A stretch of 64,000 nt of DNA from Escherichia coli (GTDB lineage: Bacteria > Pseudomonadota > Gammaproteobacteria > Enterobacterales > Enterobacteriaceae): assembly GCF_024502345.1 (NCBI RefSeq), contig NZ_JALDNN010000001.1; one strand, written 5' to 3'. The notes under the pieces were generated by a model. The model was not told the DNA's origin, did not search any database, and was given only the letters and a program-made list of their open reading frames with translations. Below are positions 1 to 18,029 of the stretch, one piece after another. Each line of letters starts with the position of its first letter. Position 1 is the first letter of the stretch. The translations under genes and the position numbers were made by a program.

Positions 1-788
1 TTGCACCTGCTGCATCGCCTCTCGCTTCGACCATCGTTCAGACCCCGGACGACGCGATTGTGGCGGGCTTCACCTCTATCCCTTCACAAGGGGATAACAT
101 GCCTGCTTACCATGCCAGACCAAAGCAAAGCGATGGCCCACTGCCAGTGGTCATTGTAGTGCAGGAAATTTTTGGCGTGCATGAACATATCCGCGACATT
201 TGTCGCCGTCTGGCGCTGGAGGGGTATCTGGCTATCGCACCTGAACTTTACTTCCGCGAAGGCGATCCGAATGATTTTGCCGATATCCCCACGTTGCTTA
301 GCGGTCTGGTAGCAAAAGTGCCTGACTCGCAGGTGCTGGCCGATCTCGATCATGTCGCCAGTTGGGCTTCCCGCAACGGCGGCGATGTTCATCGTTTAAT
401 GATCACCGGATTCTGCTGGGGTGGACGTATCACCTGGCTGTATGCCGCGCATAATCCACAGCTAAAAGCCGCAGTGGCGTGGTACGGCAAACTGACGGGC
501 GACAAGTCGTTGAATTCACCGAAACAACCTGTTGATATCGCAACCGATCTTAACGCGCCGGTTCTCGGCTTATATGGCGGTCTGGATAACAGTATTCCGC
601 AGGAGAGCGTTGAAACCATGCGCCAGGCGCTGCGGGCTGCTAATGCGAAAGCAGAGATTATCGTGTACCCGGATGCCGGGCATGCATTCAACGCTGATTA
701 TCGCCCGAGCTATCATGCCGAATCTGCGAAAGATGGCTGGCAGCGTATGCTGGAATGGTTTAAGCAGTATGGTGGGAAGCGGAGTTAG
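1..788 (+). CDS. ysgA: Dienelactone hydrolase family protein, 5' end outside window
   Basis: Open frame runs from window edge (..APAASPLASTIVQTPDDAIVAGFTSIPSQGDN..) to stop at 788; alpha/beta hydrolase with GFCWGG nucleophile elbow; K-12 synteny next to metE. Confidence 0.85.
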   Translation, partial: APAASPLASTIVQTPDDAIVAGFTSIPSQGDNMPAYHARPKQSDGPLPVVIVVQEIFGVHEHIRDICRRLALEGYLAIAPELYFREGDPNDFADIPTLLSGLVAKVPDSQVLADLDHVASWASRNGGDVHRLMITGFCWGGRITWLYAAHNPQLKAAVAWYGKLTGDKSLNSPKQPVDIATDLNAPVLGLYGGLDNSIPQESVETMRQALRAANAKAEIIVYPDAGHAFNADYRPSYHAESAKDGWQRMLEWFKQYGGKRS

Positions 789-1181
789 TTTCCTCTTAGT
801 CTATATTTGAGATGGTGAGTGAACGAGTGCGTTTTGCTGCCATCTCTGTCCCCCAAAAAATAATCAGTATGAATTGATTGGAGATTACGACTCCGCTATT
901 TGACCTTAAAAAAGTCGGCAAGTCATAGTCATAAATGAGTCTCTTCAATGGAAGACACCTTAGAGATTTACCATCAACTCCCATTCACAAACAAACATTA
1001 ATTATTATCAACACATTCACATTAATTATAAATCATCTCAGACCTTCCTGATAAAAAGATATTAAAGTGAAACATTTTGTTTTTCACATTTTAGTTCATC
1101 ACTTTTAGGCGTAAATAAAGGTAAAAAAAACAACAATACTATTTCTCTTTCACAAAAGAATTAACAAAAGGTTTTTCAAGG

Positions 1182-1657
1182 ATGAGTGATATTATTTACC
1201 TGACCATAACCGGAGAACAACAAGGATGTATTTCCTCTCGTTGTGGAACGAGCGCATCAATAGGTAATCGCTGGCAGATTGGCCATGATGATGAAATCTT
1301 CGCGTTCTCGCTCTCTAATAGTATTACGAATACAGGCAAAGGGTCATAATTGCATGGCCTTAGTTTCTGTAAATTGATTGACAAAAGCTCCCCGTTACTT
1401 ATTAACGCTATTAACAATAACGAGCAGTTGTTCATGGAGTTTGACTTCTATCGGATCAATAGGTTTGGTCGATGGGAGAAATATTACAACATTCAACTCC
1501 GCGGCGCGCTCTTATCAGCAATCAATCACCTGTTTACTGAGAACAATCTGGATACAGAAGCCATCACTGTCAGTTATGAATATATACTCTCCAGGCATCT
1601 GATTGCTAATACTGAATTTAGTTATTTGGCATTTCCCGATAACTACAACCGTCTGTT
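1182..1657 (+). pseudogene. hcp: T6SS Hcp-family tube protein gene, disrupted by in-frame TAA (1347-1349) and truncated at 1657 by IS903-like insertion
   Basis: Translation MSDIIYLTITGEQQGCISSRCGTSASIGNRWQIGHDDEIF..GKGS*LHGLSFCKLIDKSSPLLINAINNNEQLFMEFDFYRINRFG.. matches Hcp family signature (KLIDKSSP, FxFYRIN); N- and C-parts are in the same frame separated by TAA. Confidence 0.7.
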
Positions 1658-2714
1658 GGCTTTGTTGAATAAATCGAACTTTTGCTGAGTTGAAGGATCA
1701 GATCACGTATCTTCCCGACAACGCAGACCGTTCCGTGGCAAAGCAAAAGTTCAAAATCACCAACTGGCCCACCTACAATAAAGCCCTCATCAACCGTGGC
1801 TCCATAACTTTCTGGCTGGATGATGAAGCTATTCAGGCCTGGTATGAGTCAGCAACACCTTCTTCACGAGGCAGACCTCAGCGCTATTCTGACCTTGCCA
1901 TCACGACTGTGCTGGTCATTAAACGCGTATTCAGGCTGACCCTGCGCGCTGCGCAGGGCTTTATTGATTCCATTTTTTCTCTGATGAACGTTCCGCTACG
2001 CTGCCCGGATTACAGCTGTGTCAGCAGGCGGGCAAAGTCGGTTAATGTCAGTTTCAAAACGCCCACCCGGGGTGAAATCGCACACCTGGTAATTGATTCC
2101 ACCGGGCTGAAGGTCTTCGGTGAAGGCGAGTGGAAAGTCAAAAAGCATGGCCAGGAACGCCGCCGTATCTGGCGTAAGCTGCATCTCGCCGTTGACAGTA
2201 AAACACATGAAATCATCTGCGCTGACCTGTCGCTGAACAACGTTACGGACTCAGAGGCCTTCCCCGGGTTAATCCGGCAAACCCACCGGAAAATCAGGTC
2301 AGCCGCCGCCGATGGCGCTTACGATACCCGGCTATGTCACGATGAACTGCGGCGTAAGAAAATCAGCGCGCTTATCCCTCCCCGAAAAGGTGCGGGTTAC
2401 TGGCCCGGTGAATATGCAGACCGTAACCGTGCAGTGGCTAATCAGCGAATGACCGGGAGTAATGCGCGGTGGAAATGGACAACAGATTACAACCGTCGCT
2501 CGATAGCGGAAACGGCGATGTACCGGGTAAAACAGCTGTTCGGGGGTTCACTGACACTGCGTGACTACGATGGTCAGGTTGCAGAGGCTATGGCCCTGGT
2601 ACGAGCGCTGAACAAAATGACGAAAGCAGGTATGCCTGAAAGCGTGCGTATTGCCTGAAAACACAACCCGCTACGGGGGAGACTTACCCGAAATCTGATT
2701 TATTCAACAAAGCC
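1658..2714 (+). mobile_element. IS903-family (IS5 family) insertion sequence, 1057 bp, 18-bp terminal inverted repeats, flanked by 9-bp direct target duplication CCGTCTGTT (1649-1657 and 2715-2723)
   Basis: Left end GGCTTTGTTGAATAAATCG at 1658, right end GATTTATTCAACAAAGCC ending 2714; identical 9-mers on both flanks read directly from sequence; single DDE transposase ORF inside. Confidence 0.9.
1735..2658 (+). CDS. IS903-family DDE transposase (307 aa if GTG start at 1735; six-frame ORF extends to 1690)
   Basis: IS5-family transposase motifs (DSTGLKVFGEGEWKVKKHG..RRIWRKLHLAVD); lies inside the inverted-repeat-bounded element. Confidence 0.8.
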   Translation: MAKQKFKITNWPTYNKALINRGSITFWLDDEAIQAWYESATPSSRGRPQRYSDLAITTVLVIKRVFRLTLRAAQGFIDSIFSLMNVPLRCPDYSCVSRRAKSVNVSFKTPTRGEIAHLVIDSTGLKVFGEGEWKVKKHGQERRRIWRKLHLAVDSKTHEIICADLSLNNVTDSEAFPGLIRQTHRKIRSAAADGAYDTRLCHDELRRKKISALIPPRKGAGYWPGEYADRNRAVANQRMTGSNARWKWTTDYNRRSIAETAMYRVKQLFGGSLTLRDYDGQVAEAMALVRALNKMTKAGMPESVRIA

Positions 2715-2852
2715 CCGTCTGTTTATACCACGGCCAAAAACTAAAGCTGGTAATGGTTCAAAACACTTAATAGTAAAGCGGTTGGCAGACTGCTTGCTGC
2801 TGGCGGCATATACAATGGGAATATCGAAGGATTCAGGGAAACAGCAGACAAG

Positions 2853-3395
2853 TTGGGGGGAGATGCACCTGCTGGTTACGATCAATTTATGGATAACAAA
2901 GGGTTACTCATCGCTGGTGCTTCAATAGTTGCTGGAGCAGTTCTGGGGAGAATGAGACTCCCTGATTTGGAATCACTTGAGCATTTCGGAGCCAGAGGAG
3001 CAGTATCAGGAAGACCATTTAATCCCGACCTTGCCGGTGGTCCAATAGAAAATCTGACGACAGATGGCGTAACAATCAACAGGGAAGGTATCGCTATTGT
3101 TGAAAAACACATAGCCAGATTTGGTCATGACCCTGTAAATGAAGTGATGATCAATAGACTGAAAGACATTGAGAAAGGAAAAATCCCCCCAGAACAAGTA
3201 GATCTTAACTTCTATACTCATGAGTGTCGGGAATATCAGCGTTACTGTAATCTTGGTTGGGAAACAGGACAACCTGATGGTGACGCAGGCTATGCACTCT
3301 GGAATCATACGCATACTGCTACTCTAGAAGATTATAAACTTAAGGGAGAACTTAATGACTTATACCACCAGGATGCACTTGACTATGATAACTGA
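2853..3395 (+). CDS. Orphan toxin-like C-terminal domain ORF (possible extension domain of the disrupted Hcp, Hcp-ET type); frame is open back to 2754 without ATG
   Basis: 180-aa ORF with TTG start and no ATG upstream in frame, directly downstream of hcp/IS; overlaps the next small ORF; no catalytic motif recognised by eye. Confidence 0.35.
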   Translation: MGGDAPAGYDQFMDNKGLLIAGASIVAGAVLGRMRLPDLESLEHFGARGAVSGRPFNPDLAGGPIENLTTDGVTINREGIAIVEKHIARFGHDPVNEVMINRLKDIEKGKIPPEQVDLNFYTHECREYQRYCNLGWETGQPDGDAGYALWNHTHTATLEDYKLKGELNDLYHQDALDYDN

Positions 3396-3630
3396 AACTG
3401 AAATTAACGTACTGAAAGTTATGGCTGAGAAAGATATAAACTGGAACTGGATGAATCTCGATCGCACACTATCCATAAGGCAAATTCCAGGATTCGGTAA
3501 TGTTGTTAACATTGTTAACAAATTAGCTAACGAGGGTTTGGTTATTATTGAGGATAGCGGACATAAGTCTATGCCTCACTACCACGTTACTGAAAAGGGA
3601 TACAATTTCGTGAAAAGTGAGAATAAATAA
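3385..3630 (+). CDS. Small ORF in immunity-protein position (81 aa from ATG 3385; alternative start 3355)
   Basis: ATG overlaps the last codons of the upstream ORF (ATGATAACTGA arrangement), typical of translationally coupled toxin-immunity pairs; function not recognisable. Confidence 0.3.
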   Translation: MITETEINVLKVMAEKDINWNWMNLDRTLSIRQIPGFGNVVNIVNKLANEGLVIIEDSGHKSMPHYHVTEKGYNFVKSENK

Positions 3631-3776
3631 CGTAGCGTTGATTACTGAACAAATCGCTCAGGATTATATTTTGCGTAAAAATGATTCGGTTATTTCTGTA
3701 TCTGAACGGGCGCAGATAGCAAAATGGCTTCCGGTGATGGAAGCCATCAGATTATTGGCAAAGTGCGCGTTGTTCA

Positions 3777-3808
3777 TGCCGGATGCGGCGTGAACGCCTT
3801 GTCCGGCC
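3777..3808. repeat. REP (repetitive extragenic palindrome) element
   Basis: GCCGGATGCGGCGTGAACGCCTTGTCCGGCC palindromic unit. Confidence 0.6.
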
Positions 3809-3914
3809 AACAAAACTCAAAAATTCAATAAATTGCATAAATTATGTAGGCCTGGTATCAGGCAGTTTTGCCTCTTTCATCGTACTGCAATTTACAGTGA
3901 CTCGTTAATATTCA

Positions 3915-6176
3915 TCATCCCCGACGCAAATTCTGCGCCGCCTGCACCATGTTCGCCAGTGCCGCGCGGGTTTCTGGCCAGCCGCGCGTTTTCAGGCCAC
4001 AGTCCGGGTTGACCCACAGGCGCTCTGCCGGAATGCGTTTTGCCGCTTTCTTCAGCAAGGCTTCAATCCATTCCACGCTCGGTACGTTTGGCGAGTGAAT
4101 GTCATAGACGCCTGGACCGATTTCATTCGGATAATCAAACTCTTCAAACGACTCCAGCAACTCCATGTCGGAACGCGAGGTTTCGATGGTGATGACGTCT
4201 GCATCCAGTGCCGCAATCGAATCCATGATGTCGTTGAACTCGCAATAACACATGTGAGTGTGGATTTGTGTGTCATCTTTCGCCACGGCGGCGTTGATAC
4301 GGAAGGCCTCCACGCCCCACTGGAGATATGCATCCCAGTCGCTACGACGCAGCGGTAAACCTTCGCGCAGCGCCGGTTCATCAATCTGGATGATGCCAAT
4401 TCCTGCGGCTTCCAGGTCCGCCACTTCATCACGCAGCGCCAGCGCAATTTGTTTGGCGATGGTTTCACGGCTGACATCTTCACGCGGGAACGACCAGCAG
4501 AGAATGGTCACCGGGCCAGTCAGCATCCCTTTCACCGGTTTATCAGTCAGAGATTGCGCATACTTCGCCCACTCCACGGTAATCGGTGCCGGGCGGCTAA
4601 TGTCACCAATGACAATCGGTGGCTTCACGCAGCGGGAACCGTAGCTCTGTACCCAACCGTTTTGCGTAAAGACAAATCCGTCGAGGTGCTCGCCAAAGTA
4701 TTCCACCATGTCATTACGCTCGGCCTCGCCATGTACCAGCACATCCAGTCCCAAACGTTCCTGTTCAACAATGGCCTGCTTGATATGTTCCGCAATGCCC
4801 GTGCGGTAGTTGTTGGCGTCGAGATTACCCTTTTTGAAATCCAGACGCAGGGTACGAATTTCCGTGGTTTGCGGGAAGGAACCAATCGTGGTGGTCGGCC
4901 ACGCTGGCAGTTTAAAACGCGCACGCTGGGCTTCGGCACGCACTTCATAGACATTCGCACGCTGGCTGTCCTGGGCGGTGATCGCCGCCAGACGCTTTTC
5001 TACTGCCGGGTTATGTACACGAGTAGAGTGACGACGCGCCTGAATTGGAGCGCTCCACTCTGCCAGAGCTGCCGTATCACCACTGTTCAGCGCATCTCGC
5101 AGCAGTGCCAGTTCATGACATTTTTGCAGGGCGAAGGCAAACCAGCTTTTCACTTCTGCATCAAGACGCGTTTCCACGCTCAGGTCGATGGGGCTGTGCA
5201 GCAACGAGCAGGAAGATGCCACCCACAAATCACGTTTGCCGACAATGTCCTTAATTTGCGCATATTTCTCAGTAAGATCGGCGCGCCAGACGTTACGACC
5301 ATTGATCAGACCCGCAGACAGCAGCCAGTCAGAAGGCAGGCGCTTGTGCAGTTCAACAACGTCATCTTTACCATGTACAAGGTCCACATGCAGCCCCTGA
5401 ACAGGCAGCGCAGTAATCGTGTCGAGATTTGGCGTTACGCCTTCAAAATAGGTGGTCAGCAGCAGTTTCACCTGTCCCTGGAGCGCGTCGTAAGCGGGTT
5501 TGTATGCGTCCAGCCACGCCTGTGGTAGTTCCAGTACCAGCGCGGGTTCATCAATCTGTACCCACTCGATGCCGCGTTTCGCCAGTTCTGCCAGCACTTG
5601 CTGATAAACCGGCAGAATGTCGTTCAGCAGGCTAAGGCGGTCAAACTGTTCACCTTTCACTTTCCCCAGCCACAGGTAAGTAACCGGCCCCAGCAGCACA
5701 GGCTTAACGTTGTGGCCCAGCGCCAGCGCCTCGTCCACTTCCTCCAGCAGCTGCGTCCAGGTCAGTTTGAACTGTTGGCCTTTAACGAACTCCGGCACCA
5801 TGTAGTGATAGTTGGTGTTAAACCATTTGGTCATTTCCGCTGCCGCCGCAGGTTCGCCAGTCGGCGCACGTCCACGACCAATACGGAACAGGGTGTCGAT
5901 ATCTACCGAACCGTCTTTGTTCTGATGACGTGGCGGAACATTACCCAGCAGCAAACTGGTGGTCAGTACATGATCGTACCAGGCAAAATCGCCCACCGGC
6001 AGCAGGTCGATACCCGCTTGCTTTTGTTGATCCCAGTGACGAGCACGCAGTTCACGCCCTACTGTCAGCAGTTCTTCACGCGTGGAGTTCCCCGCCCAAT
6101 AACTTTCTTGCGCTTTTTTCAGCTCGCGACGCAGGCCAACGCGAGGGAAACCGAGGGTGTGATTCAATATTGTCAT
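3915..6176 (-). CDS. metE: Cobalamin-independent methionine synthase
   Basis: 753-aa ORF, N-terminus [29 protein letters not shown] typical of MetE; divergent from metR as in E. coli. Confidence 0.97.
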
Positions 6177-17062: not shown

Positions 17063-17233
17063 TAGGAAAAAGTTTCCTAATCGGTAAATTCAATATTTTG
17101 TTATTAACAATGAGCAAGACCAATCATTAACGACGTTCTCTTCAGAGATGTAATGAAAAAATGTGAAGTGTACTTCTTTTTTAAATATTTTTTTACCCTA
17201 GCATTTGTTCTCAAATTGGGTAATGACTCCAAC

Positions 17234-17737
17234 TTATTGATAGTGTTTTATGTTCAGATAATGCCCGATGACTTTGTCATGCAGCTCCACCGATTTTGAG
17301 AACGACAGCGACTTCCGTCCCAGCCGTGCCAGGTGCTGCCTCAGATTCAGGTTATGCCGCTCAATTCGCTGCGTATATCGCTTGCTGATTACGTGCAGCT
17401 TTCCCTTCAGGCGGGATTCATACAGCGGCCAGCCATCCGTCATCCATATCACCACGTCAAAGGGTGACAGCAGGCTCATAAGACGCCCCAGCGTCGCCAT
17501 AGTGCGTTCACCGAATACGTGCGCAACAACCGTCTTCCGGAGCCTGTCATACGCGTAAAACAGCCAGCGCTGGCGCGATTTAGCCCCGACGTATCCCCAC
17601 TGTTCGTCCATTTCCGCGCAGACGATGACGTCACTGCCCGGCTGTATGCGCGAGGTTACCGACTGCGGCCTGAGTTTTTTAAATGGCGGAAAATCGTGTT
17701 GAGGCCAACGCCCATAATGCGGGCGGTTGCCCGGCAT
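17234..17737 (-). CDS. insB: IS1 InsB (expressed as InsAB' transposase by -1 frameshift)
   Basis: 167-aa ORF typical of IS1 InsB, overlapping insA 3' end. Confidence 0.95.
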
Positions 17738-17931
17738 CCAACGCCATTCATGGCCATATCAATGATTTTCTGGTGCGTACCGGGTTGAGAAGCGGTGTAA
17801 GTGAACTGCAGTTGCCATGTTTTACGGCAGTGAGAGCAGAGATAGCGCTGATGTCCGGCGGTGCTTTTGCCGTTACGCACCACCCCGTCAGTAGCTGAAC
17901 AGGAGGGACAGCTGATAGAAACAGAAGCCAC
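17656..17931 (-). CDS. insA: IS1 InsA
   Basis: 91-aa [46 protein letters not shown].. identical in character to IS1 InsA. Confidence 0.95.
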
Positions 17932-18029
17932 TGGAGCACCTCAAAAACACCATCATACACTAAATCAGTAAGTTGGCAGCATCACCCTCAAATTGATATT
18001 GAGCTTAAATATAACCAAGGAAAATGTAA

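Follow-up and report, generated by a model that had tools for sequence, protein, structure and literature searches.

IS903B in an already inactive hcp-toxin gene between ysgA and metE of Escherichia coli: a most likely recent and probably neutral insertion

When an insertion sequence (IS) is found inside a gene, the question arises whether the element destroyed a function or entered a gene that had already lost it. This question is raised by the IS903B copy at positions 1658-2714 of a stretch of 64,000 nucleotides from Escherichia coli (contig NZ_JALDNN010000001.1 of assembly GCF_024502345.1), which is called the window here. The element interrupts hcp-ET, a fusion of tssD with a toxin gene, in a small island between ysgA and metE. 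We regard it with high confidence as a most likely recent, probably neutral and lineage-specific simple insertion of IS903B into an hcp-ET gene that was already dead.

The order of events was read from a comparison of alleles. The hcp-ET pseudogene lies on the plus strand in two parts. Its 5' part (1182-1657) encodes the Hcp core domain, matched by Pfam T6SS_HCP and TIGR03344. Its 3' part (2724-3395), named 'colicin' by the Prokaryotic Genome Annotation Pipeline (PGAP), encodes a linker, a hydrophobic stretch and a C-terminal toxin domain of about 146 amino acids (aa). Compared with a near-intact allele from Logan (ERR3405511), two lesions were found. An exchange of C to T at 1347 converts CAA to TAA (1347-1349) and thus Gln56 to a stop, and the deletion of one nucleotide between 2757 and 2758 shifts the frame. 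Both lesions are also present in the exact empty-site allele of E. coli FDAARGOS_943, whose uninterrupted gene is annotated by PGAP as a tssD pseudogene of 1148 nt, 'frameshifted; internal stop'. Since this identical allele carries both lesions without the element, hcp-ET was dead before IS903B arrived, and IS903B therefore caused no further loss of function. The insertion was probably neutral, because the gene was already a pseudogene.

The same allele shows how the element entered. After deletion of 1658-2723, that is of the IS and one repeat copy, the remaining 2059 bp are found without any change in E. coli FDAARGOS_943, and CCGTCTGTT occurs there as a single copy. In the window this 9-bp sequence is present as a left (1649-1657) and a right copy (2715-2723), which abut the two ends of IS903B; no further copy was found in the window. 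For two specified 9-mers the chance of identity is 4^-9 = 3.8e-6. The perfect 9-bp target duplication claimed in the preliminary description was thus confirmed. Because of the exact empty site and the single copy of CCGTCTGTT in FDAARGOS_943, the event was a clean simple insertion that duplicated 9 bp of the target; direct repeats together with an exact empty site are what a simple insertion predicts.

The ends of the element are equally well defined. IS903B is complete on the plus strand with 1057 bp, its transposase gene running from left to right and 1658 being the end of the left inverted repeat (IRL). The IRL (1658-1675, plus strand) comprises 18 bp, GGCTTTGTTGAATAAATC, and the right inverted repeat (IRR; 2697-2714, minus strand, 18 bp) is its perfect complement. 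A search of the window for this 18-mer with up to 3 mismatches gave exactly these two sites, and two matches were obtained in none of 100 shuffled windows. Terminal inverted repeats had been described before and are present, perfect over 18 bp. The 19th base of the left repeat, G1676, does not belong to them, however, as the right end has A at this place and the base stays unpaired.

For the chemistry of the event, the course that is established for the IS903 family can be proposed. The DDE transposase would bind both 18-bp terminal inverted repeats, the 3' ends of the element would be joined to a target whose strands are cut 9 bp apart, and gap repair would leave CCGTCTGTT as direct repeat on both sides. 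IS903 produces mainly simple insertions and, in a minority of cases, replicative cointegrates. In the same terms, simple insertion or replicative cointegrate, IS903B was discussed by He et al. (PMC4471558).

Regarding the age and spread of the insertion, 5,426 complete E. coli genomes were screened with a query that covers both junctions. None of them matched at a coverage of at least 80%, and no match reached beyond the IS itself. In contrast, a Logan contig of 937 bp (SRR33906014) is identical to window positions 750-1686. It crosses the left junction and ends 29 bp inside the IS. At this junction the fusion open reading frame (ORF) gains a short IS-encoded tail, ...NRLLALLNKSNFC followed by a stop. 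In the look-up of the fusion ORFs, this contig was the one match to the version of 84 aa with ATG start, and for the version of 112 aa with TTG start no record was found. As the junction is present in SRR33906014 but in none of the complete genomes, the insertion is real and restricted to a lineage. It is most likely recent, as had been proposed from the perfect duplication. The identity of the element to many other copies, the exact empty site and the absence of the junction from the complete genomes agree with this proposal.

The assignment to IS903B was made from both the nucleotide and the protein level. Over its full length the copy is 100% identical to many plasmid copies from Citrobacter, Salmonella, Escherichia and Klebsiella and to chromosomal copies of E. 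coli, all of them annotated as 'IS5-like element IS903B family transposase'. Within E. coli, IS903-family copies share between about 87% and 100% identity with the window copy; PGAP keeps the IS903B label down to about 97% identity and uses 'IS5 family transposase' below. In ISfinder, isoforms share more than 95% nucleotide identity. By the PGAP and RefSeq names of dozens of identical copies, the isoform is IS903B.

The transposase gene (1735-2658, plus strand) has a GTG start and codes for 307 aa plus stop; the open frame reaches upstream to a TTG at 1690 (322 aa). Pfam matches were obtained to DDE_Tnp_1_5 (PF13737, 2.9e-40) and DDE_Tnp_1 (PF01609, 5.9e-33). The IS5-family equivalog NF033579 (transpos_IS5_2) of NCBIfam was matched with 357.6 bits at a cut-off of 140. 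The exact protein of 307 aa carries the record name 'MULTISPECIES: IS5-like element IS903B family transposase' and is known from at least 1000 contigs. It contains D121, D193 and E259, which we take to be the catalytic acidic triad of the IS903 transposase in the numbering of the mutational literature.

A single DDE ORF, inverted repeats of about 18 bp, a 9-bp duplication and a length of about 1.05 kb place the element in the IS903 group of the IS5 family. For this group, lengths of about 1050 bp, inverted repeats of about 18 bp (listed as 15-27 bp) and a 9-bp direct repeat were reported (PMC3281130). IS903B was described with 1057 bp and 9-bp direct repeats as a member of the IS5 family (PMC10513040; PMC9769513), and the IS903/IS602 copies in pSNC3-Kan have 1057 bp and an ORF of 969 nt with TTG start (PMC9282650). 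The preliminary description of an IS903-family element of 1057 bp was therefore correct, down to an internal sequence of the IS903 group and direct repeats that were found again on re-examination; it can now be specified as IS903B, identical to annotated copies and encoding the exact IS903B protein. With ORF and inverted repeats, the sequence requirements for transposition are intact, and 1658-2714 is apparently a functional IS903B.

Concerning the position within the target, the insertion had been placed in the 3' end of hcp. This holds for the Hcp core domain, which has about 160 aa (Howard et al. 2021, PMC8262886), but not for the gene. IS903B follows nucleotide 476 of 1148 of the hcp-toxin fusion, at codon 159 of about 382. 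This place, about 41% into the gene, is where the Hcp core ends and borders on the toxin extension. The repaired translation has intact relatives of 377-382 aa in metagenome contigs of E. coli type, in Citrobacter and in Salmonella. They align end to end, from the Hcp core over the linker (LKTLNSKAVGRLLAAGGIYNGN...GGDAPAGY) and the hydrophobic stretch to the toxin domain of about 146 aa. The combination of an Hcp core and an in-frame C-terminal extension exceeding 60 aa, by which an Hcp-ET is recognized, is thus found as ancestral state only; the gene in the window is now broken by the stop, the frameshift and the IS.

Several points weigh against our reading. The isoform was named after PGAP and RefSeq annotations of identical copies and not after the ISfinder reference, and transposition activity of the copy is apparent only as a prediction from its sequence. 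The recent timing is deduced from zero divergence and a narrow distribution. Neutrality was derived from the prior state of the gene, and the IS copy is oriented towards the toxin remnant and a putative immunity ORF (3385-3630), both of which lie downstream of it. This ORF could be driven by an outward promoter located in the IRR end, or by transcription continuing out of the transposase gene, and could then protect the strain from neighbours armed with the same Hcp-toxin. The orientation of IS903B, which is that of the island genes, and the immunity-like ORF itself, which is intact and widely conserved (at least 1000 contigs), would fit such an adaptive insertion, and for IS903-group elements outward promoters in the terminal parts were shown (PMC3281130). 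We nevertheless consider an adaptive insertion unlikely. In a simple sigma-70 scan the IRR end showed no promoter-like site, and the promoter and terminator counts in the scan of 800-3950 were near those of shuffled sequences. The IRR and the immunity ORF are separated by about 670 bp of frameshifted coding sequence, and the island persists in hundreds of genomes without any IS.

That IS903B inactivated a functional hcp or hcp-toxin gene is very improbable. The element does break the frame at codon 159 and adds its tail, but in the base-identical allele of FDAARGOS_943 codon 56 is already TAA, and the frameshift is present as well. Precise excision, by which an uninterrupted allele could arise from an interrupted one, is very rare for IS903. 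Composite transposons are known from this group: aph(3')-I is flanked by IS903 copies in Tn903 and Tn602 (PMC9282650), and an IS903B composite transposon was reported as well (PMC9769513). The window copy could accordingly be the arm of such a Tn903- or Tn602-like unit, or part of a larger unit with cargo. Against this, the inverted-repeat search and blastn revealed one copy and no partial copy in the 64 kb, so that a composite transposon within the window was ruled out, and the preliminary suggestion to look for further copies flanking other genes gave nothing there. In addition, the 9-bp duplication directly flanks the single element, and its excision restores a known sequence exactly. There is hardly any room left for this explanation. 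Nor do we give credence to an assembly artefact by which a repeat was collapsed or misplaced into the locus. Copies of IS are classic sites of misassembly, and the Logan contig at the left junction stops within the element. However, misassembly would not be expected to create a perfect target duplication of 9 bp. The left junction recurs identically in an independent read set (SRR33906014), and in the empty allele the two flanks adjoin without a gap. The reading as a simple insertion of IS903B into a dead hcp-ET was therefore retained.

The toxin domain is possibly novel, the only such item at the locus, and it is inactive in the window. No match was found in Pfam or NCBIfam, and phmmer and a profile of 56 sequences gave no sequence match in the PDB. 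With E<=1e-3, 473 representative clusters were obtained, in which the domain stands at the C-termini of proteins of up to 5,214 aa. Its invariant residues are H52, D83, Y87, H89, E90, E93, W116 and H120. The preceding linker (window 2756-2960) is conserved; after it, relatives carry either the same toxin or unrelated C-terminal domains (P0064, P0070, P0115, P0097, P0119). Furthermore, the module of linker and toxin was observed behind non-Hcp N-termini in Pantoea, Cronobacter and Atlantibacter. Such modular swapping is typical of polymorphic toxins.

The island itself (789-3914) is flanked by ysgA (60-788) and metE (3915-6176, minus strand). Without the IS it comprises 2.06 kb, with a guanine plus cytosine content of 39.6% compared to 51.2% in the window, and it contains the orphan 'specialized Hcp' pseudogene and two small ORFs. 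It was detected in 845 of the complete genomes and is absent in K-12 MG1655, where a spacer of 39 bp separates ysgA and metE, and in strain AR_0128. For extraintestinal pathogenic E. coli, the interval metE..ysgA appears in a list of variable genomic regions (PMC12928451); beyond this listing, no literature on the island was found. A type VI secretion system cluster beside the island was not found within the window.

The first of the small ORFs (3385-3630, plus strand), the putative cognate immunity gene, is intact and encodes 81 aa, its role being assigned from its position only. It overlaps the stop codon of the toxin by 11 nt, and its product is identical to WP_000627421.1, which is known from at least 1000 contigs. 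A weak winged-helix similarity was observed, and some sources name the protein 'MarR family'. Probably it is an orphan immunity gene which was kept after decay of the toxin. For the second ORF (3617-3793, 58 aa) no matches were found; its protein is named mainly from records of Shigella sonnei and S. boydii.

Other IS elements were noticed in this island. In O145:H28 strains and in the Logan allele ERR3405511 an IS3-family element lies in the toxin-coding part (equivalent to about 3271), and in FDAARGOS_943 an IS1A directly follows ysgA. The hcp-toxin island between ysgA and metE is a decaying orphan effector locus. Depending on the lineage, it was hit independently by a point mutation, by an indel and by one or another IS element, and the immunity-like gene stays intact.

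In the wider window, a complete IS1 copy at 17219-17987 is 100% identical to IS1B of strain AR_0128. Compared to AR_0128 it lies on the opposite side of a segment of 743 bp near rarD/corA, and therefore the copy was either inserted at another site or moved by a rearrangement of this region. Two segments are absent from AR_0128. The segment 27620-30182 is flanked by lptM and cyaY; at this place, all that AR_0128 has is the remnant of a DKNYY-family pseudogene. The segment 38519-40097 is situated at aslA, a gene of which AR_0128 has a truncated form. Over the 24-kb core region 3900-28000 the best complete RefSeq genome of E. coli reaches only about 98.5% identity, whereas FDAARGOS_943 matches the hcp-ET island at 100%. 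The window may come from a lineage missing from the E. coli collection, possibly from Shigella.

In the preliminary description the element had been contrasted with K-12, from which, in accordance with the published K-12 IS inventory, IS903 is not known. Little can be concluded about the strain from this contrast, since a copy of near full length is present in about 28% of the complete E. coli genomes, and a single genome can have as many as 47 matching places. IS903B is common on plasmids and chromosomes of Enterobacteriaceae, where it ranks among the commonest insertion sequences, and in Klebsiella it disrupts mgrB, wcaJ and wbaZ. An extra copy in a dead gene is routine genome flux. The finding is thus a known element in a new, inconsequential position and belongs to the routine variation between strains of E. 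coli. The insertion shows that the strain was exposed to IS903B, which is typically plasmid-borne. Of practical use is the junction as a lineage marker, with no occurrence in the complete genomes and one public read set.

Compared with known systems, the window copy is like IS903B in length, 18-bp inverted repeats, 9-bp duplication, 307-aa DDE transposase and nucleotide identity. The element itself is without differences, and the sole novelty is its insertion site, codon 159 of the hcp-ET pseudogene between ysgA and metE. IS903 proper (the arms of Tn903), IS602 (of Tn602) and IS102 are of equal length. End structure and duplication size of these three elements are also those of IS903B, from which they differ by a few percent of nucleotides. 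In contrast to the arms of Tn903 and Tn602, which are paired around aph(3')-I, the window copy is solitary. The target belongs with the Hcp-ET or 'specialized Hcp' effectors (Ma et al. 2017, as far as summarised in PMC6730261; Howard et al. 2021, PMC8262886). It shares with them the core of about 160 aa, a toxin part at the C-terminus that exceeds 60 aa, and a small ORF downstream, at the place of an immunity gene. Two differences stand against this likeness: the toxin domain matches none of the five toxin types described for Hcp-ET (HNH-DNase, DUF2235, pyocin S3, colicin DNase and papain-like), and the window copy is a pseudogene.
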